Assembly: GCA_964431915.1 (NCBI GenBank) | Contig: CAYSLI010000001.1 | Location: 47,240-111,239 of the forward strand | Direction: 5' to 3' | Origin: an uncultured Candidatus Saccharibacteria bacterium | GTDB lineage: Bacteria > Patescibacteriota > Minisyncoccia > Minisyncoccales > CAZKCU01 | DNA length: 64,000 nucleotides | Part shown: positions 12,360 to 56,154 of the stretch, one piece after another | Layout: each line of letters begins with the position of its first letter | How positions within the stretch are numbered: the stretch's first letter is position 1 | Position numbers and translations under genes: made by a program | The notes under the pieces: model-generated | The model's database searches: none | Told to the model about the DNA's origin: nothing | What the model saw: only the letters and a program-made list of their open reading frames with translations

Positions 12360-14063
12360 TTATTGAATCTTGCCCATTTCCTCGCTAATAGTCGGGTCAT
12401 CTGGCAAAGAGGCATTAACCGGATCGGCTGTAGCTTCCACCTTTTCTCCTGTCCAGACATCTTCTCCGATTATTCTAACCTGAGAAATAAGTTCAGGAAT
12501 CTCTCTTCTCTGGGCCGAATCAGGAGTTAAAGCAACTTGAAAGGAAATCTCAGGCTCGGGGCCCGAAATTCCTTTTCCTGCTGTTAACTCACCAATTTCC
12601 CAGACAATTTCCCGGCTCACAGAGTCAAAAGAAAACTTAGCTTCTTTTGAAGAAATTTCGCCAGTTAATCTCACCTGAAGAGGTAAATTAGCTTTAACTT
12701 TTAGATTTTTAACATCGTTGTAAAAATTTTTAGCCTGCCAAAAGATAGTATAAGTTGTTGTAGAGCCAACCCGGGGAGGAAGGGGCCCATAATTTTTAAA
12801 AGCTCCCTTGTCAAAATAACCTCTCTGAGAAATAGCCAGCTTTGTGTTAATTTTAGTAATAAATTCTTCTTTAGCCTCACTCAAGCTAATTTTAGTTTTG
12901 ATTTGAGGATTTTTGAGAGAGAAATCGTCTTTCACTCTTACCCAAAATCCAACTTTTCCTTCTTCCATACTGGATAGAAGACGTAATTGGGGAACTGTAA
13001 TATGGTCCCAGATAATTGAGTTTGAACCTTTTTGAAATTGGCCGGCTCCAGCTTGAAGAGTGTCAAAATCTAAAACTCCTCCTTCTAACTGAACTACCAA
13101 AAATAAATTTTCCAAACCTTCCTCTCCGGTATTTTTAAAGAAGACTTCGTAATACAGATAATCCCCGGGGCAAGCTGAATATTGAGGAGAATTATTAATT
13201 TGATAGGAGAGAAAAATCGAAGGTCTGGTAATTTCTATCCCCTTAGTTGTCTCTTTTAATAAAACAAATTCTCCTTCCTGCCAGATGCCTAAATTTGCCC
13301 GAAAGATTTTTGACTCTTGAACCTCTCCCCTTAGAATGCCGGAAACTTCAATTCTTCCTCCCCCAGCCTTATTTAAAAGTGGAATCTCCCATTCTGTTTT
13401 TCCTAAGGACTTTGGCTGACTCTCAAAAAACTCAAAGCCAGCAGGATATTCAATCCTTACTCTTAAATTAGAAATAGGATAATCTATATTTGAAAAATAA
13501 TTTAACCTAAAGAGAGTTTTTCTGCCAGGTTCAACTTTCGAAGGAAAATCAAATTCAAAAGTAAGAGGAACACTTTTAATTAAAGTAGTGAAAGTGGTGG
13601 CTGACTCATAGCGAGTTTTTAGATTTTTTGGTTTATAACTTAACCAAGCCTTGGCAATCTTAGCTTCATTTTCTCTACCTAATAATCTGGCTTTAAAATG
13701 GAAGGTTCTCTCTTGGCCAGGGTAGATATCCTCGAGTTCTTTTTCTTGTCTTGGAGATACTTCTTCTTGAGGCAGGGCTTCCTGATTTTCAGACCGGATT
13801 TCTTCTTCGACAACTATTGAATTTTTAGGATATTCAAAAATAAGTTTTGGCTCTTCTAACCTGATATTGCCATTATTTTTATATTTCACTATATATTCAA
13901 TTTCTTGAGCCATTTCTACTTCTTCTGGTCCCAAAATTTCCACTCTCAAAATCTCTTTGGAATAAATATTTCTTTGATAATACCAAAAACCGGCTACCCC
14001 TAAGATAATCGTTAAAATGATAATAACTTTTATTAATTTCCCCTTCATGTACCGAGCTTCCAT
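12360..14063 (-). CDS. membrane-anchored protein with repeated beta-sandwich (DUF11/CARDB-like) modules, function unknown; true start may be ATG at 14048
   Basis: N-terminal TM helix (LIKVIIILTIILGVAGFWYY) followed by repeated ~100-aa segments. The first 5 codons (MEARY) are contributed by repeat element copy A, so the start is uncertain. Confidence 0.6.
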   Translation of the reverse strand: MEARYMKGKLIKVIIILTIILGVAGFWYYQRNIYSKEILRVEILGPEEVEMAQEIEYIVKYKNNGNIRLEEPKLIFEYPKNSIVVEEEIRSENQEALPQEEVSPRQEKELEDIYPGQERTFHFKARLLGRENEAKIAKAWLSYKPKNLKTRYESATTFTTLIKSVPLTFEFDFPSKVEPGRKTLFRLNYFSNIDYPISNLRVRIEYPAGFEFFESQPKSLGKTEWEIPLLNKAGGGRIEVSGILRGEVQESKIFRANLGIWQEGEFVLLKETTKGIEITRPSIFLSYQINNSPQYSACPGDYLYYEVFFKNTGEEGLENLFLVVQLEGGVLDFDTLQAGAGQFQKGSNSIIWDHITVPQLRLLSSMEEGKVGFWVRVKDDFSLKNPQIKTKISLSEAKEEFITKINTKLAISQRGYFDKGAFKNYGPLPPRVGSTTTYTIFWQAKNFYNDVKNLKVKANLPLQVRLTGEISSKEAKFSFDSVSREIVWEIGELTAGKGISGPEPEISFQVALTPDSAQRREIPELISQVRIIGEDVWTGEKVEATADPVNASLPDDPTISEEMGKIQ

Positions 14064-14109
14064 TTATGGAAGCAAAGGTGAAGAAGAGGGCGAAGCCCTC
14101 TTCGCCTTA
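14046..14109 (-). repeat. GC-rich hairpin repeat element, copy A (long form, 64 nt), abutting the start codon
   Basis: Minus strand: TAAGGCGAAGAGGGCTTCGCCCTCTTCTTCACCTTTGCTTCCATAAATGGAAGCTCGGTACATG. Hairpins GAAGAGGG/CCCTCTTC and CTTCCA/TGGAAG. Near-identical to copy B. Confidence 0.85.
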
Positions 14110-22136: not shown

Positions 22137-22664
22137 CTGTTTAAAAGACCATTAGTCAACAACCGAATAAGGGCTCCTCAGGTCAGGGTGATTGACAAGA
22201 CCGGAAAACAGCTGGGAATTTTGCCAATTGGAAAAGCGCTCCAGATAGCTAGGGAGCGTAATTTAGATTTAATTCAAGTCACCGAGAAGGTAATGCCACC
22301 TGTCTGTAAAATAATGGATTACGGGAAGTATCTTTATCAAGAAAAAAAGAAAGAAAAGTTAGCTCCAAAAAGTTCGGGTGAGTTAAAAGGGATAAGATTA
22401 GGGTTTGGAATTTCTCAACATGACTTGGAAGTCAGGGCAAAGTTAGCAGAAAAATTTTTAAAAAAAGGGCATAAAGTCAGAGTAGAACTAATCTTAAGGG
22501 GTCGGCAAAAAGCCCTTCCTGATTTTGCCAGAGAGAAAATGAACCAATTTCTTAGAATTTTAGAAGGGATTTTACCAATAAAAATTGAGCGGGAATTGAA
22601 AAGAGAGTCAAGAGGTTTTACAACAATAATCTCAAAAAGCAAAGAGGATAAATCCTCTTCTTAA
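22137..22664 (+). CDS. infC: translation initiation factor IF-3; start codon uncertain (non-ATG, CTG 22137 proposed)
   Basis: NNRIRAPQVRVIDxxGxQLGI...PPVCKIMDYGKYLYQ is canonical IF-3. The only in-frame ATG (22077) lies inside the tmRNA 3' end. IF-3 genes classically use atypical start codons. AAGGA lies 4 nt upstream of the CTG. Confidence 0.88.
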   Translation: MFKRPLVNNRIRAPQVRVIDKTGKQLGILPIGKALQIARERNLDLIQVTEKVMPPVCKIMDYGKYLYQEKKKEKLAPKSSGELKGIRLGFGISQHDLEVRAKLAEKFLKKGHKVRVELILRGRQKALPDFAREKMNQFLRILEGILPIKIERELKRESRGFTTIISKSKEDKSSS

Positions 22665-25816: not shown

Positions 25817-27064
25817 TTATGATAGCAATTCTTTAAAAAGTTTTAAATAGTCTCTTAAAAGCCTTGGCATTAAAAACTTTTCTCTAACTGTCTCTCTGGC
25901 ATCTTCTCCTAAATTTTTAGCTAGTTGAGGATTTTTAAGAAGCTGAGTAATTCTTTTTGCCGCTTCTTTGGGGCTAGAAACCAAAAATCCGTTTTTCCCG
26001 TCTTTAATCTGAAGTTTTATTCCCTCTCCCTTTCCACCAATAACTGCTTTTTCTTTCCACATCGCCTCGCTTAAGCTAAGACCAAATCCTTCCCTGGTTG
26101 AATTTTGGACAATAACATCAGAGGCAACTTGAATAGCATTGACAAAAACGTGGACTTTTAAACTGCCCAACATTTCCGGCTTAGAAAAGAGAAAGATGTC
26201 AGGGTCTTTTTCTGTTTTCTTTTTAATAAATTTAAAAATTTTCATTGCTTCTGGATCATCTTTGGCTAAGAAAAAACCAACCAAAGCCAGTTGTAAGTCA
26301 GGAATTTTCTTTTTGGCAATTTGATAGGCCTCAATTAGTTCTAAATATCCCTTCCAAGGGTCAAAACGGGAAACCTGGGAAATCAATCGCCGAGAGGAAT
26401 CTATTCCATATCCTTTTAAAATCTCTTTTGAGTAATCCAAATTTAGAGGTTGATTTTTGGGACTCAAAGGATTAATGGCCGGCGGAAAAACTACTGCCCT
26501 TTCTTTAACTTCCTTTTTAACATACTTCTTTGAGCTAAAGACAATTTTTTCATACATTCCAAAAATTCCGGCAAAAAATTTCCAAGTTTCGGGATTTGGA
26601 GACGTTAAATCAATATGTAACCGACAAATCGCCGGATGAAGATGGGGTAAATATAAAATTAAACCGGCTGGTTGAGGGTCGTGTATTACCCAAATATCAG
26701 CTTTCATATTTCGCATTAAAGAGGCACTTCTCTCTATATGCTCTAAATATCTTACCCGATGCCAAAAAGGAATGGAATATTTTTCGCCTTGAAGGGCATT
26801 GTGAATTTTTTTGGTAATCTTAAAAAAATCCTCTCTTGGTGGAACAGTACGCCACTCAGTTCTTATTCCCACTCCTTTCATTAAAGGAACCAGGTTTTTT
26901 AAAATTTCAGCCACCCCACCGCCCCGAGGAGTAGCATTAACGTGAGAAACTTTTAGCCCTTTAGAATATTTAGCCAATTCTCTTATTTCTTCAAAAAGCG
27001 CTTCAGAAATTAATTCTTTATATTCTTCTAATTTTTGAGTTGGAGTTTTAACTAAAGGAAGCAT
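25817..27064 (-). CDS. GT4 glycosyltransferase, trehalose synthase (TreT)-like
   Basis: N-terminal HVNATPRGGGVAEIL motif typical of TreT-type enzymes. C-terminal GT-B EGFGLSxxEAMWK motif. Confidence 0.72.
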   Translation of the reverse strand: MLPLVKTPTQKLEEYKELISEALFEEIRELAKYSKGLKVSHVNATPRGGGVAEILKNLVPLMKGVGIRTEWRTVPPREDFFKITKKIHNALQGEKYSIPFWHRVRYLEHIERSASLMRNMKADIWVIHDPQPAGLILYLPHLHPAICRLHIDLTSPNPETWKFFAGIFGMYEKIVFSSKKYVKKEVKERAVVFPPAINPLSPKNQPLNLDYSKEILKGYGIDSSRRLISQVSRFDPWKGYLELIEAYQIAKKKIPDLQLALVGFFLAKDDPEAMKIFKFIKKKTEKDPDIFLFSKPEMLGSLKVHVFVNAIQVASDVIVQNSTREGFGLSLSEAMWKEKAVIGGKGEGIKLQIKDGKNGFLVSSPKEAAKRITQLLKNPQLAKNLGEDARETVREKFLMPRLLRDYLKLFKELLS

Positions 27065-27542
27065 GTTTTTCTAAAAATTGGTGGGCTTTTTTGAGAGTTT
27101 CTTTGGCGTTTTCAAAAGTTAATTTTTTTATTGCTTTTTCGTAGAGCAACCATTCAAAACCGAGATGTTCAAAAGAAACTTTAATGTCTTCTTCTTCCGT
27201 TTCTGCTAAATAAAAAGTAACAAATTTCAGAATATTTTTTCCTTTAAATTTAAAGAAATATTTTATCCGCTCTTTAAAGCCTTCTAAGAATTCAATGTCT
27301 TTCAATCCAGTTTCCTCTTCCACTTCTCTTCTCACAGTTTCAATTTCCTTTTCCCCCTTTTCAATATGGCCTTTGGGTAAATCCCAATATTCTCTTGCTG
27401 CTTTAGGCGAAGAGGGTAAACCCTCTTCTTTACCCTTCGCTGCGGCTCGGGTAGCTAAAGAAGGATAGTGTAGTAATAAATATTTTATTTTTTTGTCCTC
27501 TCGGCGGAAAATTATAGCTCCGGCTGATTTTTCTAAAGGCAT
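27048..27542 (-). CDS. NUDIX hydrolase carrying an in-frame insertion of repeat element copy D
   Basis: Nudix box GHIEKGEKEIETVRREVEEETGL. The segment ATRAAAKGKEEGLPSSPKA is encoded by the antisense of the repeat element. Confidence 0.85.
   Translation of the reverse strand: MPLEKSAGAIIFRREDKKIKYLLLHYPSLATRAAAKGKEEGLPSSPKAAREYWDLPKGHIEKGEKEIETVRREVEEETGLKDIEFLEGFKERIKYFFKFKGKNILKFVTFYLAETEEEDIKVSFEHLGFEWLLYEKAIKKLTFENAKETLKKAHQFLEKHASFS
27403..27453 (+). repeat. GC-rich hairpin repeat element, copy D (short form), antisense and in frame inside the Nudix gene
   Basis: TTAGGCGAAGAGGGTAAACCCTCTTCTTTACCCTTCGCTGCGGCTCGGGTA. Shares GGCGAAGAGGG..CCCTCTTC and CGCTGCGGCTCGGG with the other copies. 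Confidence 0.85.
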
Positions 27543-30415: not shown

Positions 30416-30449
30416 CGGTAAAAACCTCGGTTCAATTAAGGACCGAGGT
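30416..30449 (-). terminator. rho-independent terminator after the DUF1858 gene
   Basis: 8-bp stem ACCTCGGT/ACCGAGGT, followed on the minus strand by TTTTT. Confidence 0.6.
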
Positions 30450-30523
30450 TATTTATTTACTATCGAATCCCTAGCATCTCTTTACTTAGTTTTATCTTAC
30501 TCTTTTGACTTAAATGGAAAATT

Positions 30524-31713: not shown

Positions 31714-31762
31714 ACCCGAGCCACAGGCGTCAGGTGAAGAAGAGTAAACATTCTTCGCCTAA
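31711..31762 (-). repeat. GC-rich hairpin repeat element, copy C (short form), ending on the PGI/PMI start codon
   Basis: Minus strand: TTAGGCGAAGAATGTTTACTCTTCTTCACCTGACGCCTGTGGCTCGGGTATG. Occupies most of the 63-nt intergenic spacer. Confidence 0.8.
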
Positions 31763-38304: not shown

Positions 38305-38865
38305 ATTTTTAGTTTAACACATTTTTAAAAACTAAAAAAGAGGTAAAGTTCCTCTCCGCCTGTTTACTTTAGAGAATTAAGATGTATTCAAAACTAAAAC
38401 CCGCTAGAGGATTTCTCTAACGGGGTTTAGTGAGGGGGAAATGGTCTTAACAAATTTAGTCATTTGAATCCACTGGGTCGGACATAGCCAGGCAATTGCT
38501 TTTTAACCTCTTTTATTAAAACCGCTTGTCCTTAGAGGAGAATCCCTCGCACCCCCTCGCTTTATATATTAATTCCCTAAAAATATCTGTCAACCTGTTT
38601 GAGTTTAAGGAAAGTGCTGGCGATACATTTCTTTTCCTAATTTTCTTTTCAGAAATTTTTTATTAGCTTGAATTAAAATATTGCCGAATTATTAAGCTTT
38701 TAATAACCCACAAGTTCTCCCCAGTTTATTAACATCTTTCTGAATTTGATGTTTATTTTACTCTCCTGTTGAGTTTATGGTATAATTCGTTAAGAAAGGA
38801 AAACCAAAAAATTAAGATATAATTAAAGACACAAAATATTTTATCTTTTGATTTTAGACAAACAC
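38305..38865. other. candidate replication-origin region upstream of dnaA (also holds a GC-rich structured island and the dnaA promoter)
   Basis: 561-nt non-coding gap at the point where the predominant coding strand switches from minus to plus. AT-rich stretches. One 7/9 DnaA-box-like TAACCCACA at 38703-38711. Confidence 0.4.
38758..38786 (+). promoter_or_regulatory. candidate extended -10 promoter for dnaA
   Basis: TGGTATAAT (TGn + TATAAT at 38781-38786) about 80 nt upstream of the dnaA ATG. The -35 is weak. Confidence 0.45.
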
Positions 38866-40215
38866 ATGACTAAGGAAGAATTGTGGCAAGCGGTTTTGTC
38901 CCAAATCCAATTAAATATTTCTCAGGCTAATTTTAGCACCTGGTTTAGAAATACCGGGATTCTCTCCCAGAAAGAAGGCAAAGTTATAGTTTCTGTCCCT
39001 AATTCTTTTGCCAAAGAGTGGCTTGAAAATAAATACAACAAGATTATTTTTAAGCTCTTGCACAACTTGAATGGAGAAATCAAAGAGATTAAATATGCTG
39101 TCGCCCGACAAGGATTAAAAGTTTTGAAAAAAACCTCTTTCTCTTATCCAGAATCGGACCAACTTGAATTTCAAGAACTAAGAATAGACAAAGACACTAA
39201 TCTTAACCCCCGCTATACTTTTGAAAATTTTGTGGTCGGTCCTTTCAATGAACTACCGCAGGCTGCTGCCTGGGCGTCCTCAAAAAATCCTGGCCTTGTC
39301 TATAATCCCTTGTTTATTTATGGAGGGGTGGGTCTCGGTAAAACCCATTTATTACAGGCAGTCGGTAATGAGGTAATTAAAAATTTTCCAGAAAAAAAAA
39401 TAAAATATATTCCTTCCGAAAAATTCACCTCTGGAGTGGTAACGGCAATTAAAAATCATACTATGGAAAATTTTAAAACGAAATACCGACAGATAAATGT
39501 CCTTATTATTGATGATGTTCAATTTCTGGCTGGGAAAGAAAAAACCCAAGAAGAGTTTTTCCATACTTTTAATACTCTTTACGAAAAAAATAAACAAATA
39601 ATTCTTTCCTCTGACCGGCCCCCAAAGGCTATCCCGGCACTCACCGAAAGATTAAGGTCCAGATTTGAGGGAGGAATGATAGCTGATATCGGTTACCCTG
39701 ATTTCGAAACAAGAATGGCTATTCTTAAAACAAAGGCCCAAGAAAAAAAAATTAGCCTTCCCGAAGAAACCCTTGCCTATATTGCATCAAACATCCAAAG
39801 AAACATTAGGGAGCTTGAAGGAGCTTTGAACAGATTAGTTGCTCATCAAAAGTTAAATAACCAACCATTAGAGCCGGAAGAAGCTAAATCTTTGCTTAAA
39901 AAATTACTCCTCTCCTCAACTAGAGCAGCCACGCCGAAAAAAATAATCAGAGCAGTAGCTAAATTTTACGACCTTAAAGAAAATAACCTTTTAGATTCCT
40001 CGCGTAAAAGAGAGATCGTCAGACCTCGCCAAATTGCGATGTATTTATTAAGAGAAGACTTAAAAAGTTCCTACCCTTTTATAGGAAGGAAAATGGGAGG
40101 AAAAGACCACACCACGGCTATTCATTCCTACGAGAAAATTTTAAAAGAACTTGAAATAAACGAAAATTTAAAGGAAGAAATTGAGTTAATTAGACAGCTT
40201 GTTTTTAGCATCTGA
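38866..40215 (+). CDS. dnaA: chromosomal replication initiator protein DnaA
   Basis: MTKEELWQAVLSQIQ...FSTWF N-terminus, Walker A GGVGLGKTHLLQA, DDVQF box, C-terminal HTH (GGKDHTTAIHSYEKI). ATG 38866 preferred over TTG 38848. Confidence 0.96.
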   Translation: MTKEELWQAVLSQIQLNISQANFSTWFRNTGILSQKEGKVIVSVPNSFAKEWLENKYNKIIFKLLHNLNGEIKEIKYAVARQGLKVLKKTSFSYPESDQLEFQELRIDKDTNLNPRYTFENFVVGPFNELPQAAAWASSKNPGLVYNPLFIYGGVGLGKTHLLQAVGNEVIKNFPEKKIKYIPSEKFTSGVVTAIKNHTMENFKTKYRQINVLIIDDVQFLAGKEKTQEEFFHTFNTLYEKNKQIILSSDRPPKAIPALTERLRSRFEGGMIADIGYPDFETRMAILKTKAQEKKISLPEETLAYIASNIQRNIRELEGALNRLVAHQKLNNQPLEPEEAKSLLKKLLLSSTRAATPKKIIRAVAKFYDLKENNLLDSSRKREIVRPRQIAMYLLREDLKSSYPFIGRKMGGKDHTTAIHSYEKILKELEINENLKEEIELIRQLVFSI

Positions 40216-40251
40216 CTTTTTACTTTTTTACTGAAAATTTCCTTGGTTATT

Positions 40252-40361
40252 AGTGGAAAAGACATGGCATTAAAAGTGGAAAATCTCTTTAAAAATTTCT
40301 TTTTCTTTTCTTCTTTTTGTTATCCCTAATTAATTAACTACTTCTTTACTTATTTTCCATT
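40252..40361. promoter_or_regulatory. cluster of four DnaA-box-like 9-mers in the dnaA-dnaN spacer
   Basis: AGTGGAAAA (rc TTTTCCACT) at 40252-40260 and 40275-40283. TTATCCCTA at 40320-40328. TTTTCCATT at 40353-40361. Each is 6-7/9 to TTATCCACA. Confidence 0.4.
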
Positions 40362-40420
40362 AGTTTTCTTTTAACTAATCTATCTAAAAAAAATATTTTT
40401 ACCCAGTGCCTATAACTATA

Positions 40421-41551
40421 ATGAAATTAATAATATTACAAAACAAATTAAAACAAGGACTTAGTGTCATCGAAAGAATTTCTTCTAAGTCTTTTGCTTT
40501 ACCTATTCTTAGAAACCTTCTTATTAAAACCGAAAAAAACTTTTTATTATTGGCAACGACAGATTTAGAAATAGGAATTAAATGGTGGATTCTTTCTAAA
40601 ATAGAAAAAGAAGGAGAGATTACTGTCCCAACTTCTATTTTGTCAACTTTTATAAGTCTCTTACCTGAAAAAGCGGTCGAATTGACAGCTCATAATCAAA
40701 TTTTATCTGTTGAATGTGAAGGTTATAAAACCAAAATAAAAGGACAAAGCTCAGAAGATTTTCCCATTATTCCTGAAATATCAGAAGGTATCTCATTTTC
40801 TCTTGACAGTTATTCTTTTTGTCAGGCCTTAAATCAAATTGTAGATATTGTCCTTCCCTCTGCAGTAAGGCCTGAAATTTCAGGCATCCATTTCTTTGTA
40901 CAAAAAGACTTAATAAAAATGGCAGCTACCGATAGTTTTAGATTGGGTGAGAAAACTCTGTTTTTAAAAAAACCGCTTGCAATTGAAAAGGAAATCTCCC
41001 TGATTCTACCCCAAAAAACAGCAAAAGAAATAATTAATATTTTTGGAGAAAAACAAGGAGAGCTTAAAGTCTTGGTTAGCCCTAACCAAATTTTATTTGA
41101 GGCTATAATGTCTGAAACCCCTCATCCAGAAATTCGTCTTACTTCAAAATTAATCGAAGGAGAATACCCAAATTATCAGGAAATTATTCCTAAAAAATAT
41201 GAAACTCAGGTTATTTTAGATAAGCAGGAATTTTTAAATCAGATTAAAGCGGCCAGTCTTTTTAGCGGGAAAATAAACGAGGTCAAATTTAAAATTGACC
41301 CTAAAAAAGAAAGAGTAGAGATCTCCAGTCAGAATCCCGAAACTGGAGAATACCATTCTTTACTCTCAGGAAAAACAAAAGGGAAAGAGGAAGAAATTTC
41401 TTTTAATTATAGGTTTTTAAATAGCGGGCTCTTGAATATAAAAAGTTCAGAGGTGATTTTTGAGCTAAATGGCGAAGTAGGCCCTGGAGTTTTGAAGCCA
41501 GTAGGGGATGAAAGTTATATCTATGTTGCAATGCCAATTAAAGGAACATAG
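40421..41551 (+). CDS. dnaN: DNA polymerase III beta subunit (sliding clamp)
   Basis: MKLIILQNKLKQGLSVIERISS..LPIL.N.L; three-domain ~375 aa. Follows dnaA. ATG 40421 preferred over GTG 40406. Confidence 0.92.
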   Translation: MKLIILQNKLKQGLSVIERISSKSFALPILRNLLIKTEKNFLLLATTDLEIGIKWWILSKIEKEGEITVPTSILSTFISLLPEKAVELTAHNQILSVECEGYKTKIKGQSSEDFPIIPEISEGISFSLDSYSFCQALNQIVDIVLPSAVRPEISGIHFFVQKDLIKMAATDSFRLGEKTLFLKKPLAIEKEISLILPQKTAKEIINIFGEKQGELKVLVSPNQILFEAIMSETPHPEIRLTSKLIEGEYPNYQEIIPKKYETQVILDKQEFLNQIKAASLFSGKINEVKFKIDPKKERVEISSQNPETGEYHSLLSGKTKGKEEEISFNYRFLNSGLLNIKSSEVIFELNGEVGPGVLKPVGDESYIYVAMPIKGT

Positions 41552-44784: not shown

Positions 44785-44952
44785 CTAAACTTCCTCTTTC
44801 TTTTCTTCCTCTGCGGGAGTTTCCTCTGCGGGAGTTTCCTCTGCGGGAGTTTCCTCTGCGGGAGTTTCTGCAGGAGGAGTTTCAGGAGTTTCTCCGGGAG
44901 TCTCTGGCTCTTGATTAATAACCGGAGTTAAAATTTTTTCTTTGTAAGTCAT
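44785..44952 (-). CDS. 55-aa acidic Pro/Glu/Thr repeat protein (not in ORF track, <60 aa)
   Basis: ATG 44952 ... TAG 44787-44785. MTYKEKILTPVINQEPETPGETPETPPAETPAEETPAEETPAEETPAEEEKKEEV. Preceded by a consensus promoter and followed by a terminator. Confidence 0.5.
   Translation of the reverse strand: MTYKEKILTPVINQEPETPGETPETPPAETPAEETPAEETPAEETPAEEEKKEEV
44808..44867 (-). repeat. 15-bp tandem repeat x4 (CCTCTGCGGGAGTTT), coding for (ETPAE)n
   Basis: Four perfect 15-mers read directly, with degenerate copies continuing to ~44900. Confidence 0.95.
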
Positions 44953-47332: not shown

Positions 47333-47398
47333 TATTTATTCACGCGAGCCGAGCGAGCGCAGCAAGCAAGGCGAAGCGTTAAAATGAAAGAGGAGATT

Positions 47399-48739
47399 TC
47401 ATTGCATTCCGGTTACTCTTTCCACCTCTCCAATTGTAGTAATTCCTTTCAAGACCTTTATTATCCCGTCTTGGTACATAGTGAGCATTCCTTTTTTTAT
47501 AGCTTTTTCTTTTAGGGCTGAAATTGAAGGTGAAGTTAAAATAAATCTTTCCATCTCATCGTCAACTAAAAAAGCCTCAGAAATCCCGATTCGACCCTTA
47601 AAACCTGTAAAATTACAATCTTTACATCCTTTAGCTTGAGGGATTTTTAAGGCAGCAGAACTTTTACCCTTTGACAATAGAGAGGCCCCATTAGGAAGAT
47701 TGACTATTTCCTTTGGGACGTTCTTAAGGGTTTTTTTAATTTTTTTAAAATCAGATGAGGAGGTTTTTTCAAACTTCACGCATTTCTGGCAAACTTTTCT
47801 GACCAATCTTTGGGCGATAACCATGTTTATCGCCGGAGCAATGTTTACTGGTTTTTCTCCCAGGGCTTTCAACCTGACCACTGTTCCAGCAGCATCATTG
47901 GTATGCAGGGTAGTTAAAACTAAATGGCCGGTTACGGCTGCCTGGAGACTAATCTTGGCGGTTTCCATATCTCTTATTTCTCCTACTAAAATTACATCAG
48001 GATCTTGGCGCATAATGGATTTGAGGCCTGAGGCAAAATCATAACCTTTTTCCGGAGAAATTTGAGTCTGGGAAATCCCTTTTAAATGATACTCAATAGG
48101 GTCTTCAATAGTTATAATTTTAATCTCTGGTTTTTGGATTTTTTTTAAAAAAGCATACAGAGTTGTACTTTTCCCGCAGCCGGTAGGCCCGGTAACAATA
48201 ATCATTCCATTCGGCCTTTTTATTTCCTTTTTAAAAATTTCTAATAAATCTTTTCTCACTCCTAATTGTTCAATCTCAATTAGGCCTTTTGGGTTCAAAA
48301 TTCTCAGGACGATTGATTCTCCATACTCGGCCGGCAAGGTTGAGGCCCTGATTTCAATTTCTGTTTTTTTCTTTAGAATAGAAAACCGGCCATCCTGAGG
48401 CCGGTCAGTAATATTTAATTTAATTCCAGAAAGAAGCTTAATCCGAGAGAGAAGGGTTTGATATGTTTTTAAATCAAAAATTATTACATCTTGTAAGATT
48501 CCATCAATTCTGGCTCGGATTTTAGCTTGATTTTCTTCTGGCTCGATGTGAATGTCAGAGGCCTTGAGAATTATTCCTCCTCCCAAAATGATTTCTAAAA
48601 TTTCCGAGACACTCTTTTTTAAAAACTCTTCAATCTTTTTCTTAAAATCAGAAATATTTTTTATTTTCTTTTGAGTCTCAGCAAGTATTTTAGAAGAGAT
48701 TTCTATTGAACCTGTAATTTTTTTTGAAACTTTATTCAT
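47399..48739 (-). CDS. pilB: type IV pilus / type II secretion assembly ATPase (PilB/GspE family, short form)
   Basis: Walker A GPTGCGKST, Asp box, Walker B (DPDVILVGEIRD), His box (GHLVLTTLHTND), C-terminal tetracysteine CQKC...CKDC. Confidence 0.9.
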   Translation of the reverse strand: MNKVSKKITGSIEISSKILAETQKKIKNISDFKKKIEEFLKKSVSEILEIILGGGIILKASDIHIEPEENQAKIRARIDGILQDVIIFDLKTYQTLLSRIKLLSGIKLNITDRPQDGRFSILKKKTEIEIRASTLPAEYGESIVLRILNPKGLIEIEQLGVRKDLLEIFKKEIKRPNGMIIVTGPTGCGKSTTLYAFLKKIQKPEIKIITIEDPIEYHLKGISQTQISPEKGYDFASGLKSIMRQDPDVILVGEIRDMETAKISLQAAVTGHLVLTTLHTNDAAGTVVRLKALGEKPVNIAPAINMVIAQRLVRKVCQKCVKFEKTSSSDFKKIKKTLKNVPKEIVNLPNGASLLSKGKSSAALKIPQAKGCKDCNFTGFKGRIGISEAFLVDDEMERFILTSPSISALKEKAIKKGMLTMYQDGIIKVLKGITTIGEVERVTGMQ

Positions 48740-49359: not shown

Positions 49360-49425
49360 ACCCAGTAGAAGAATTTCGACAATTTTAAAAAATTTGAGAA
49401 GCAAGTCGAAATTTCTCTACTGGGT
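49360..49425 (+). promoter_or_regulatory. 21-bp imperfect inverted repeat forming a long hairpin in the 5' leader of the 5'-3' exonuclease gene
   Basis: ACCCAGTAGAAGAATTTCGAC ... GTCGAAATTTCTCTACTGGGT (about 19/21 pairing, 24-nt loop), ending 6 nt before the ATG. Confidence 0.45.
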
Positions 49426-49431
49426 AAAACA

Positions 49432-50391
49432 ATGAACGGCAAGAAAAAACGCTTGATAATTATTGACAGCAATTCTTTAATCCACCGGGCTTATCATGCT
49501 TTACCGCCATTAACTACAAAAAAAGGAGAATTGATTAATGCTGTTTATGGTTTTTTATTGGTTTTTTTGAAAGTCCTGAAGGAATTTCAACCAGATTTTA
49601 TTGCAGCTTGTTTTGATTTACCGGGTCCGACTTTCCGTCATAAAAAATTTAAGGGATATAAAGCAAAAAGGCCTCCAACTCCAGAAGAACTGTGTCGGCA
49701 AATTCCAAAGGTAAAAGAAGTTTTAAGAGGATTTAGCGTTCCCATTTTTGAAAAAGAGGGATTTGAAGCCGATGACATTATTGGGACTATTTCCAAACTT
49801 GCTCCAAAAAAACAAGTAATACCTGAAATTGGAACCGTTATTTTAAGCGGCGACTTGGACACTTTGCAGTTAGTTAATCCTTGCACCAAAGTTTATGTCT
49901 TAAGAAAAGGGGTAAAAGATATTGTTTTATACGATGAAAATTTAGTTAAAGAAAAATTTCAAGGGTTGGTCCCAGAACAAATTTTAGATTTTAAATCATT
50001 AAGAGGAGATGCTTCAGACAATATTCCCGGCGTTACCGGAATTGGCGAAAAAACAGCGATTGAACTTCTCTTAAAATTTGGAAGTTTAGAGAACATATAC
50101 AAAGAGATCGAAGAAGATGAACCTTCTTCTCTCTCCTCCGCTGCGGCTCGGGAGATCGAAGAAGAAAATCCTGAGAAAGCAAAAAATCTTAAACCAAAGC
50201 TAAAAGAAATTCTTTTAAAATATAAAGAACAAGCTTTTCTTTCTAAAACTTTGGCTCAAATTAATAAAAATACTCCAATAGATTTTAATTTAGAAAAATG
50301 CCGCTGGAGAGACTATGATAAAGAAAAAGTAATTCAAATTTTAAAAAACTTAGAATTTTATAGTTTATTAGAAAGACTGCCAAAAGCTTAA
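49432..50391 (+). CDS. 5'-3' exonuclease (FEN/Pol I N-terminal domain homologue) carrying an in-frame copy of the repeat element
   Basis: LIIIDSNSLIHRAYHALP, GFEADDIIGT, LSGDLDTLQLV, LRGDASDNIPGVxGIGEKTA (H3TH) motifs. Insert ...DEPSSLSSAAAR... Confidence 0.9.
   Translation: MNGKKKRLIIIDSNSLIHRAYHALPPLTTKKGELINAVYGFLLVFLKVLKEFQPDFIAACFDLPGPTFRHKKFKGYKAKRPPTPEELCRQIPKVKEVLRGFSVPIFEKEGFEADDIIGTISKLAPKKQVIPEIGTVILSGDLDTLQLVNPCTKVYVLRKGVKDIVLYDENLVKEKFQGLVPEQILDFKSLRGDASDNIPGVTGIGEKTAIELLLKFGSLENIYKEIEEDEPSSLSSAAAREIEEENPEKAKNLKPKLKEILLKYKEQAFLSKTLAQINKNTPIDFNLEKCRWRDYDKEKVIQILKNLEFYSLLERLPKA
50108..50153 (+). repeat. GC-rich hairpin repeat element, copy E (short form), sense and in frame inside the exonuclease gene, flanked by a 14-bp direct repeat
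   Basis: TCGAAGAAGATGAACCTTCTTCTCTCTCCTCCGCTGCGGCTCGGGA. GAGATCGAAGAAGA occurs at 50104-50117 and again at 50152-50165 (48-nt spacing = 16 codons). Confidence 0.8.
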
Positions 50392-54014: not shown

Positions 54015-54890
54015 ATGCCCGAACTCCCCGAAGTAGAAACAACAATAAGAGATTTAAATAAAAAGGTCCTTAACAGGACTTTTATTGATGCTTGGACCGA
54101 TTTCCCCAAGATAGCAAGAAAACCCGAAGATTTCGAGCAACTTAAAAAAGAAATCATGGGTAAGAAAATTCAAAAAATCTGGCGAAGAGGGAAAAATATT
54201 ATTTTTAATTTATCAAAGAACCGCTCTTTGTTAATTCATCAAAAATTAACTGGCCACTTACTCCTGGGTAAGTGGGAATTCAGCGAGGGGAAATGGATTT
54301 CTCCTGCCGGACCCCTGGCGGAGAAAATTAATACCTATATTCATTTATTATTTACCTTAGATAATGGTCAAATGTTGGCTCTGTCAGATTTAAGAAAATT
54401 TGCCAAGGTCGAACTTTGGGACAATGAAGGACTTAAAAAGGAATTATGTTCTTTCGGCCCGGAACCCTTAGAAAAAGATTTTACTTTTGAAAAATTTAAA
54501 GCCTGTTTTAAAAAGAAAAGAGGTAAGATAAAGCAAGTTTTAATGGACCAAACTGTCATTGCTGGGATTGGCAATATTTTCTCTGATGAAATTTTGTGGC
54601 AGGCGAAAGTTTATCCCTTAAAAGATGTTTCAAAATTAACTGATGAGGAATTGAAAGAAATTTATCAGGCAATGAGAGAAATTTTAACAAAGGCAATTAA
54701 ACTTGGTGGAGAAAGTATTTCTGATTTCCGGAGGATTTCTGGAGAAAGAGGATACTTTGACAAGGAAAGAAAAGTTTATCGCCGAGAAGGAGAGCCCTGT
54801 CCGCATTGCGGCACAAAAATAAAAAGGGTAAAATTAGGGGGCAGAAGTGTCCATTACTGCCCTAGTTGTCAAAGGGCGAAGAGGACTTAG
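54015..54890 (+). CDS. mutM: formamidopyrimidine-DNA glycosylase (Fpg/MutM)
   Basis: MPELPEVET N-terminus (catalytic Pro2), H2TH region, C-terminal zinc finger CPHCGxxI...CPSCQ. The ATG 53961 extension is rejected. The last 5 codons and the stop lie in repeat copy B. Confidence 0.9.
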   Translation: MPELPEVETTIRDLNKKVLNRTFIDAWTDFPKIARKPEDFEQLKKEIMGKKIQKIWRRGKNIIFNLSKNRSLLIHQKLTGHLLLGKWEFSEGKWISPAGPLAEKINTYIHLLFTLDNGQMLALSDLRKFAKVELWDNEGLKKELCSFGPEPLEKDFTFEKFKACFKKKRGKIKQVLMDQTVIAGIGNIFSDEILWQAKVYPLKDVSKLTDEELKEIYQAMREILTKAIKLGGESISDFRRISGERGYFDKERKVYRREGEPCPHCGTKIKRVKLGGRSVHYCPSCQRAKRT

Positions 54891-54935
54891 TCATCTTCTT
54901 TACCTTCGCTTCCACAAATGGAAGCTCGGTCTATG
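54873..54935 (+). repeat. GC-rich hairpin repeat element, copy B (long form), spanning the fpg stop codon to the holA start codon
   Basis: AGGGCGAAGAGGACTTAGTCATCTTCTTTACCTTCGCTTCCACAAATGGAAGCTCGGTCTATG. Aligns end to end with copy A. Confidence 0.85.
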
Positions 54936-55893: not shown

Positions 55894-56154
55894 TTAGGAT
55901 TTATTTATTGACTTAGTTGTCCTTGCTTTTTTTCTATCTGCAGTGTTTTTTTTAATTAATCCAGTTTTTGCTGCTTTGTCTAATAATTTATAAACTTTGG
56001 GTAAAAGATTTTTTGCTTCTTTAATTTTTTTCTGAGAAATTAGATCTTTAACCTCTTTTAAGAGGTTTTTTATTATTTTTTTCTTTTGTATGTTTCGCTC
56101 CCTTCTTTTTAAATTTTGCCTGAGCGCTTTTTTAGCCGATTTAGTAATTGCCAT
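55894..56154 (-). CDS. rpsT: 30S ribosomal protein S20
   Basis: MAITKSAKKALRQNxKRRxRN canonical S20 N-terminus. 86 aa, basic. Confidence 0.93.
   Translation of the reverse strand: MAITKSAKKALRQNLKRRERNIQKKKIIKNLLKEVKDLISQKKIKEAKNLLPKVYKLLDKAAKTGLIKKNTADRKKARTTKSINKS

Follow-up and report, generated by a model that had tools for sequence, protein, structure and literature searches.

The gene of a 5'-3' exonuclease in a 64,000-nt stretch of an uncultured bacterial genome (assembly GCA_964431915.1, contig CAYSLI010000001.1, positions 47,240 to 111,239; hereafter the window) carries, in frame, a GC-rich repeat that is bracketed by two identical 14-nt sequences. The question raised by this locus is how the repeat, designated copy E, came to be there and whether the bracketing sequences are the trace of its arrival. 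An earlier note, made from the sequence alone, had read them as a possible 14-bp target-site duplication left by a family of repeats (copies A to E in the window) that spreads by insertion and is not an ancient regulatory site. The comparisons reported here identify copy E as an insertion polymorphism and as a member of a family of 46-nt elements whose flanking repeat is only 2 nt long, and they suggest that the 14-mer is probably a composite of this dinucleotide with a host sequence resembling the 5' end of the element.

The 14-nt repeat in the exonuclease gene

The 14-mer GAGATCGAAGAAGA occurs exactly twice in the window, at 50104-50117 and 50152-50165, 48 nt from start to start and both times inside the exonuclease open reading frame (ORF), where the protein reads ...KEIEEDEPSSLSSAAAREIEEENPEKA...; no third copy was found in the window, even when two mismatches were allowed. 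Under a third-order Markov model, about 0.5 exact 14-mers repeated within 15-120 nt are expected per 64 kb, and at least one was present in 18 of 60 simulated windows. The 14-nt repeat is therefore unremarkable by itself; its specific feature is the repeat-family member that it encloses. A nhmmer profile built from 81 metagenomic units matches window positions 50108-50153 (E = 1e-12), and copy E aligns with the window copies A to D. Its in-frame translation is part of IEEDEPSSLSSAAAR, and it forms a local GC island in a window of 34.5% G+C. The hairpin GAAGAAG/CTTCTTC, with its left arm within the left repeat, is present as had been described; folded alone, copy E reaches -10 kcal/mol (z = -0.76 relative to shuffled sequences) and is thus not more stable than these.

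The exonuclease matches the structures of Pol I 5' nucleases at E ~1e-47. Homology to the solved enzymes breaks at residue 225 and restarts at 254, where the structures have about 4 residues between, so that the insert does lie, as the earlier note had it, between the H3TH region and the C-terminal tail, in a short inter-helix linker that follows H3TH. The AlphaFold model of the exonuclease is poor (mean predicted local distance difference test score of 54, from a 19-sequence alignment) and is uninformative on the insert as a loop.

Copy E is missing from the sister genome

In what follows, related DNA loci are designated by L and homologous proteins by P, each with a number, and the sister genome corresponds to L001 and L002. 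It shares 96-99% nucleotide identity with the window over about 37 kb, and its exonuclease gene is 98.8% identical. P0003, the sister protein and the closest exonuclease homologue, is 98% identical outside the gap and 15 aa shorter exactly at the insert. Where the window reads AAA GAG ATC GAA GAA GAT GAA CCT...GCT CGG GAG ATC GAA GAA GAA AAT, the sister reads AAA GAG ATC GAA GAA GAA GAA AAT, that is, a single GAGATCGAAGAAGA with no GC-rich core. The site is likewise empty, with a single KE[IL]EEN, in 113 of the 120 best exonuclease homologues and occupied in the other 7, and none of the 120 has a doubled EIEE without the GC-rich core. The alternative named by the earlier note, a native low-complexity Glu-rich EIEE..EIEE, is not borne out by these homologues: since the empty alleles carry a single EIEE, the doubled motif is not native, and the family consists of DNA elements that insert. 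The proposal that it spreads by insertion, rather than being an ancient regulatory site, is upheld by the empty sister site and by the 113 empty homologues. The occupied protein was recovered, identical, on four independently assembled contigs, and the occupied allele is therefore no assembly artefact. Import of a foreign allele at this site was considered and rejected, as no cluster of substitutions accompanies copy E and the 11 differences found gene-wide are spread evenly.

The sister lacks both copy E (-45 nt) and copy B (-48 nt), shares copies C and D with the window genome, and has two copies of its own that the window does not carry (L001:9379-9423 and L001:13581-13625). Members of the family have thus been gained or lost on a time scale of 1-4% divergence. 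Copy E is an insertion polymorphism; as to the direction of the difference between window and sister, gain and repeat-mediated loss probably both occur. The codon position concerned is a hot spot, occupied in copy E, L003, L004/L188, L160 and L130, the last two with at least two tandem units. A second indel, near the C-terminus of the exonuclease, distinguishes the orthologues P0004 and P0011, which read CRW[TPPTHHPKRM]EKV where the window, at about 50300-50320, reads CRW[RDYDK]EKV.

A family of 46-nt hairpin elements

Metagenomic sequences were scanned with a 21-base skeleton of the short form of the element, which matched at least 120 loci, almost every match listed being a true member, and orthologous duplicates were removed to define independent insertion sites. 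Among the matches listed, at least about 100 distinct copies at no fewer than 78 independent sites share a nearly invariant 46-nt body, G[GT]C-GAAGARGA-TAAA-TCYTCTTC-TTCACCCTTCGCTGCGGCTCGGG, which is present in both orientations. The inner pairs of hairpin 1 covary (G-C in 32 vs A-T in 22 at one pair), 53-55 of 59 distinct units being paired. Hairpin 2 is short in the 46-nt form and long in the intergenic copies A and D, and the long form also covaries (TTCCA/TGGAA vs TTCTC/GAGAA).

Most copies are translated: 72 of 94 (~77%) lie inside long ORFs, 50 of them in sense frame 0, where the peptide is [GV]EEDKSSSSPFAAAR, and 18 in antisense frame 1, where it is TRAAAKGEEEDLSSS, the window NUDIX gene included; the insert amounts to 16 aa. 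Head-to-tail arrays are frequent; their period is exactly 48 nt, and units of different subfamilies often occur together in them. In one array (L185:2100-2190) neighbouring tandem units differ by an inverted loop, TAAA vs TTTA. Head-to-head inverted dimers of the 5' hairpin module, similar to the doublets of repetitive extragenic palindromes (REPs) known as REPINs, were seen at L155:3631, L161:4782, L168:756, L171, L172 and L180.

No Rfam family was found at any copy at the gathering threshold, and at E<=1 there was only an 11-bit chance match. When proteins were searched with the element peptide as a trimer, 4 of 1582 word-sharing candidates matched significantly, a figure that does not measure the size of the family, and a scan of the genome collection with the pattern GGCGAAGAN{20,50}GCTCGG was too loose, returning at least 120 chance matches in GC-rich genomes. 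The named homologues point to Candidatus Nealsonbacteria. No described element of this kind from the candidate phyla radiation (CPR) or Patescibacteria was found in the literature. Nothing is encoded by the elements themselves, and their movement has to be provided for in trans.

The flanking repeat is a dinucleotide and the target resembles the element

The flanks were compared in 88 copies that are single or last in an array. Ahead of the element, T (57 copies) and A (59 copies) predominate; after CTCGG, the 3' flank reads G72 T72 A52 n n T46/C24 G49/A35 A83 A57 G63 A64 and is random from +13. This profile shows that the right flank repeats the 5' end of the element itself in degenerate form, in an exact 48-nt register. 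When the two flanks of a given copy were compared with those of the other copies, copy-specific identity was confined to a dinucleotide. Of 78 isolated copies, 45 have the same dinucleotide left and right (TA 29, AG 9, TT 5), against a mean of 23.4 and a maximum of 36 in 5000 permutations, and after de-replication this holds for 33 of 58 independent non-tandem sites (18.6 expected, maximum 28). Exact repeats in register measure 0-6 nt at independent sites, with one of 9 nt, and at most 11 nt before de-replication, those of 12 nt or more being found, copy E apart, only in true tandem copies; in the length of its repeat copy E is thus atypical. Close pairs of occupied and empty alleles all differ by a net 48 nt, and the cleanest scar lies in the exonuclease gene, where L188 reads CGG A[TA] ATT GAA GAA and L160 reads CGG A[TA][GGC AAA GAG...CTCGGG][TA] ATT GAA GAA.

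A target profile was derived from the 67 copies that lie outside exonuclease genes. Under this profile, the sister's empty exonuclease site ranks 11th of 41,790 positions, several of the positions above it being element 5' ends, and the empty NUDIX site ranks 109th of 41,100. Such a high rank accounts for the occupation of the same exonuclease codon position in several lineages. Taken together, these results demonstrate that the family-wide scar is 2 nt long and that the preferred target is host sequence resembling the 5' end of the element (nnY-RAAGA).

These observations do not support the 14-bp target-site duplication. Across the 58 independent non-tandem insertions the copy-specific flank repeat is only 2 nt, and at copy E the conserved 5' terminus of the element (canonical G[GT]CGAAGARGA), to which the host site was near-identical before insertion, makes up 11 of the 14 bases. 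Nor is copy E quite the sole copy in the window with a duplication signature, as had been stated, since copies B and C have TA..TA flanks and copy B also an imperfect 13-nt repeat.

Origin of the perfect repeat at copy E

The explanation that we consider the best supported, and rather probable, is that copy E is a 46-nt hairpin mini-element with a 2-nt flank repeat and a self-like target, the 14-mer being a composite and no classical duplication. The family would insert into genomes that are AT-rich and belong to Patescibacteria (Nealsonbacteria-like), each insertion adding 48 nt, namely the 46-nt element and an extra copy of the flanking dinucleotide (usually TA, here AG), and it would land immediately upstream of host sequence like its own 5' end (target ~TA/nnY-RAAGA, with the slash at the junction; element start G[GT]C-GAAGA). 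Existing copies would themselves be ideal targets, hence the head-to-tail arrays, and as 48 nt are 16 codons without stops in the usual phase, insertions in protein surface linkers would survive.

At the exonuclease locus, the pre-insertion site would have been ...ACAAAG-AG/ATCGAAGAAGA... and the product AG-[ATCGAAGAAGAT...GGCTCGGG]-AG-ATCGAAGAAGA, the host AAA-GAG/ATC-GAA-GAA-GA being an unusually good mimic of the element 5' end. The 14-mer would then consist of one chance base (the element's last G, equal to the host G at 50104), the 2-nt AG repeat and 11 nt of element 5' end equal to the host. The 5' hairpin module may steer integration by recognising, or pairing with, the look-alike target. 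A long look-alike could leave the inserted copy with a few host-derived bases at its start, through homology-assisted joining or later conversion between the repeat copies, and so yield a perfect repeat.

Several observations weigh against this explanation. Copy E starts with ATC where 83 of 88 copies have G, and L003 starts with CTT although C at -1 does not vary elsewhere; the odd 5' bases equal the local host allele in both cases. L129, the closest empty relative of L003, reads AAA GAG CTT GAA GAA AAT, which is L003 minus 48 nt exactly. These host-like bases imply that pure target mimicry is incomplete and that host-derived patching of the 5' end, or a longer duplication, is needed. The total added length stays at 48 nt, as though the look-alike of the host and the 5' end of the element had been swapped base by base. 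It should be noted that one other copy of the ATC type, L186, lies at an unrelated site. The window and the sister differ at copy E by 45 nt, not 48, the sister having four GAA codons where three are expected, and its EEEE is found in 1 of the 120 homologues. In three close occupied/empty pairs there is a substitution right at the 5' junction, which indicates that the junctions are less than perfectly clean. In part, the AG flank class follows the element subfamily, and the dinucleotide may be partly element-borne. Lastly, the window encodes neither a transposase nor a recombinase nor a reverse transcriptase, and Pfam scans of 20 of its ORFs revealed only housekeeping genes.

A circle integrated by a single crossover inside GAAGAA was also considered and rejected: the right-hand copy of L003 should then have the donor's GTC, and it has the host's CTT.

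In a second explanation, which we judge unlikely, insertion really did duplicate a long target site of 12-14 nt, GAGATCGAAGAA(GA), by staggered cuts or target-primed synthesis, the incoming element being truncated at its 5' end and the left hairpin arm supplied by the host. Both repeat copies indeed track the host allele, GAGATC being present twice in the window (ATC in the sister) and GAGCTT twice in L003 (CTT in L129), the CTT of L003 is non-canonical for the family, and a retron-type reverse transcriptase exists in related genomes. However, the family-wide repeat is 2 nt and about 98% of copies have canonical 5' ends (G[GT]C) whatever the target. Moreover, the added total is always 48 nt, as expected if host bases had taken the place of the matching bases at the element's 5' end, whereas arbitrary truncation combined with arbitrary duplication would not keep it constant, and the island that encodes the reverse transcriptase is not in the window genome, which has copy E.

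A reversed polarity, somewhat more doubtful still, would make the exonuclease insertion an old one, common by descent to copy E, L003 and L188, with the empty alleles, the sister's included, produced by deletion between the repeats and the perfect repeats kept by conversion. All copies at the exonuclease site belong to the GAAGAAGA/TCTTCTTC arm subfamily, and the bodies of L003 and L188 are 1 nt apart in genes that are only 78% identical. The sister's EEEE is the expected remnant of a 45-nt out-of-register deletion between overlapping GAAGA motifs, the empty NUDIX allele of L250 has a canonical element 5' end (GGCGAAGA, reverse complement) resembling a footprint, and gain or loss of units within arrays is observed. 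By contrast, 113 empty homologues of 120 would require very many independent precise losses, and the parallel ATC and CTT changes in both repeat copies would require concerted evolution. In addition, the bodies of copy E and L003 differ at about 8 of 42 positions in genes that are 91% identical whereas those of L003 and L188 are nearly identical, a pattern that does not follow the gene tree.

That no mobile element is involved, and that the repeat is a native Glu-rich tandem duplication or a conserved regulatory, terminator or RNA motif, is very improbable, for although the region is Glu/Lys-rich, GAA slippage occurs (three vs four codons) and the intergenic copies A, C and D lie after a stop codon and ahead of the following start codon, this is already contradicted by the empty alleles with a single EIEE, and a 46-nt sequence found in both orientations at 78 or more unrelated sites, about 77% inside ORFs, with no Rfam match and, in copy E, a fold no better than shuffles, also argues against it.

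Search for the mobilising enzyme

For the element and target set out in our preferred explanation, the leading guess for a mobiliser would be a hairpin-recognising single-strand DNA enzyme of the HUH type, such as the REP-associated tyrosine transposases (RAYTs). No RAYT gene was found in the window, and a tblastn search of related loci (1 Mb) with an approximate IS608 TnpA query gave no match, a weak negative. The precomputed Pfam annotation of the sister loci likewise shows housekeeping genes and no transposase, recombinase or reverse transcriptase, a retron-type reverse transcriptase island being the sole exception.

This 1.9-kb island occupies the same locus in two related genomes (L127:5270-7019 and L250:5018-6792) and is missing from the window genome, where the corresponding position is about 30423-30466. 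It encodes a retron-type reverse transcriptase (PADLOC RT_II-A/III-A at 1e-46; NCBIfam retron_St85_RT at 158 bits, below cutoff) and a 113-aa ORF. The enzyme was set aside as a candidate mobiliser, the window genome being without it and the insertions being unlike retro-insertions. Target-primed insertion of a retroelement was rejected on similar grounds, as the duplications are of 2 nt and not variable, about 98% of the 5' ends are canonical and the island is absent from the window genome.

Comparison with known systems

GTAG-type REPs are processed as folded single strands by RAYT/TnpA-REP HUH enzymes (PMC3733652, PMC8266576). They are mainly extragenic, their tag is conserved in >90% of family members and their intragenic units are often found in replication or repair genes; how REPs disseminate is an unsolved matter (PMC3733652, PMC8266576). 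The present family resembles the GTAG-tagged REPs and REPINs in its GC-rich stem-loop (8-9 bp stem, 4-nt loop), putative unpaired tag, dinucleotide spacer and short 3' tail (the GTAG-1/2 layout). It shares with REPs the tandem-unit junctions G/TA/G, the occurrence as singles, clusters and inverted dimers, and the presence of intragenic copies, including in repair genes. In the 88 copies, T is found at -5 in 57, A at -4 in 59 and G at -3 in 83, followed by the 2-nt spacer and the 8-bp stem, the leading G being confined to tandem junctions. The family differs from REPs in that most of its copies are intragenic, each unit has a second, conserved part (TTCACCCTTCGCTGCGGCTCGGG), arrays in head-to-tail order are common whereas they are rare in REPs, the TAG tag is present in only ~65% of copies and the host phylum lies outside those surveyed.

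The Rickettsia palindromic elements (RPEs) offer a second parallel. RPE-4/6 have been equated with CGTC REPs (PMC3733652), and RPE-1 is ~150 bp long (PMC10969869). Like the present family, RPEs are palindromic selfish DNA lying in frame in unrelated housekeeping genes of a reduced AT-rich genome, with a conserved peptide that loops tolerate (PMC10969869). They differ by their size, about 100-150 bp vs 46 nt here, and presumably by an unrelated sequence. Their descriptions mention neither a self-mimicking target nor 48-nt arrays (PMC10969869).

The GC clusters of yeast mitochondria (e.g. GC42) measure ~42-46 nt and have AG or ACT direct repeats of 2-3 nt, their mechanism being unresolved (PMC4478555). 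In common with the present family they are GC-rich in an AT-rich genome, have short flank repeats, are rapidly gained and lost between strains and exist as singles and tandem arrays (PMC4478555). They are organellar and unrelated in sequence, whereas the family described here is mostly translated in frame and has a definable target profile.

Bacterial MITEs (miniature transposable elements that have inverted repeats) with a TA duplication are non-autonomous and derive from IS630/Tc1-mariner transposons, the Correia elements being an example. The present family is also non-autonomous, a 2-bp TA flank is its commonest class, and the fixed-length short duplication expected of a classical MITE is matched by its 2-nt flank repeat (33 of 58 sites). 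By contrast, terminal inverted repeats are missing, since the consensus 5' end (GGCGAAGAGGAT) and the reverse-complemented 3' end (CCCGAGCCGCAG) agree at only about 4 of 12 positions. It is also smaller (46 nt) than typical MITEs, has AG and TT flanks too, and shows a target requirement of 12 nt on one side only.

In integrons, hairpin-bearing units (cassettes with their attC sites) insert beside a core site that resembles their own boundary, giving head-to-tail arrays with a degenerate core at the boundaries. This resemblance is an analogy only, as the family has no cargo, attI or IntI, is unrelated in sequence and has its units inside genes. From these comparisons, the family may best be described as intragenic REP/RPE-like mini-elements, their membership of the REPs not being established.

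Other copies and neighbouring features in the window

The coordinates of copy E, of its parts and of the other window copies are collected in Table 1.

Table 1. Copies of the 46-nt element in the window and the parts of copy E within its host gene.
Feature	Position	Strand	Context or basis
Host gene, 5'-3' exonuclease (5_3_exonuc_N + H3TH), 319 aa	49432..50391	+	ORF; Pfam PF02739/PF01367 on the identical protein P0002
Copy E, left 14-nt repeat: G + AG flanking dinucleotide (50105-50106) + first 11 nt of the element ATCGAAGAAGA	50104..50117	+	Family consensus
Copy E, element proper, 46 nt: ATC-GAAGAAG-ATGAAC-CTTCTTC-TCTCTCCTCC-GC-TGCG-GC-TCGGG	50107..50152	+	nhmmer, alignment of window copies, sister comparison
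Copy E, hairpin 1: arms 50110-50116 (GAAGAAG) and 50123-50129 (CTTCTTC), loop 50117-50122	50110..50129	+	Read from the sequence
Copy E, short hairpin 2 (GC-TGCG-GC)	50140..50147	+	Alignment; intergenic copies A and D have a 7-bp stem instead
Copy E, right 14-nt repeat: last G of the element + AG flank (50153-50154) + pre-existing host ATCGAAGAAGA (putative target mimic)	50152..50165	+	Sister empty site
Copy A, long form with extended hairpin 2	~14051..14106	-	Intergenic, RecO to downstream gene
Copy B, canonical 46 nt, TA..TA flanks	27406..27451	+	Antisense, in frame in the NUDIX gene 27048..27542(-), adds ATRAAAKGKEEGLPSS
Copy C, TA..TA flanks	31715..31759	-	Intergenic, ends just before the ATG of a PGI-like gene; also in the sister
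Copy D, long form	54875..54930	+	Overlaps the Fpg stop codon, ends just before holA; also in the sister

Copy B is present in the window and not in the sister, a net difference of 48 nt. The NUDIX site is also a hot spot, where different lineages (P0123, P0124/127/129/134 and P0126/133/134/165) carry two tandem units, a variant body (SRKRDSV..EEGKPSS) and an extra insert KPRSRVNSLRG just downstream. A solo hairpin-1 module (AAAGAGGATAAATCCTCTTC) is found at 22642-22663, at the 3' end of infC, with no further part of the element, and is kept in the sister.

Immediately upstream of the exonuclease gene, 8 nt before its ATG, a 64-nt near-perfect palindromic insert at 49361-49424 (arms CCCAGTAGAAGAATTTCGAC and GTCGAAATTTCTCTACTGGG, TAAA..TAAA flanks) has no counterpart in the sister, where the sequence is AAAATAAAACAATG, and resembles a separate element of the classical MITE-like kind. 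Another insert absent from the sister, of about 70 nt and GC-rich (CACGCGAGCCGAGCGAGCGCAGCAAGCAAGGCGAAGCG...), lies at 47338-47407 downstream of the T2SSE ATPase gene and is possibly a degenerate, reverse-oriented relative of the family. A tandem repeat with a 15-nt unit (TTCCTCTGCGGGAGT, about 5 copies) occupies 44791-44880, and 158 nt downstream of holA (55965-56122) are present in the window only and not in the sister. The genes dnaA and dnaN lie at 38848-41551 and gene orientation switches around them, so that the replication origin is probably near 38.3-38.8 kb; relative to this putative origin the orientation of the elements shows no obvious bias, with 7 copies only.

Implications

The perfect 14-bp flanking repeat of copy E would mostly reflect a target that resembles the end of the element and not a 14-bp target-site duplication, which corrects a tempting misreading. 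Beyond this locus, we tentatively put forward, as a possibility that we hold with less confidence than our explanation of copy E, that the proteomes of Patescibacteria/CPR bacteria have been colonised by a very small, undescribed element of 46 nt that targets itself. It would integrate at a dinucleotide just upstream of a mimic of its own 5' hairpin module, every copy would offer a new landing pad, and the Glu/Lys-rich linkers (GAA-GAA) of housekeeping proteins would be its hot spots. Recognition may involve single-stranded DNA pairing with an HUH-type or guide-dependent recombinase.

The spread of REPs, RPEs and mitochondrial GC clusters is unexplained, and the family offers sharp rules in this respect, its unit being 46 nt long and its flank repeat 2 nt, with a target profile that covers 12 nt on one side and arrays spaced at 48 nt. 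Its many natural pairs of occupied and empty alleles make the mechanism directly testable and, should the self-targeting element prove real, it would provide a tractable natural system for how REP-like elements disseminate. The family also shows that a sizeable share of the small "loop insertions" of CPR proteins (16 aa, EEDKSSSSPFAAAR or, in antisense, TRAAAKGEEEDLSSS) are selfish DNA and not adaptive protein features, which matters for the annotation, alignment and structure prediction of the proteins of these bacteria.

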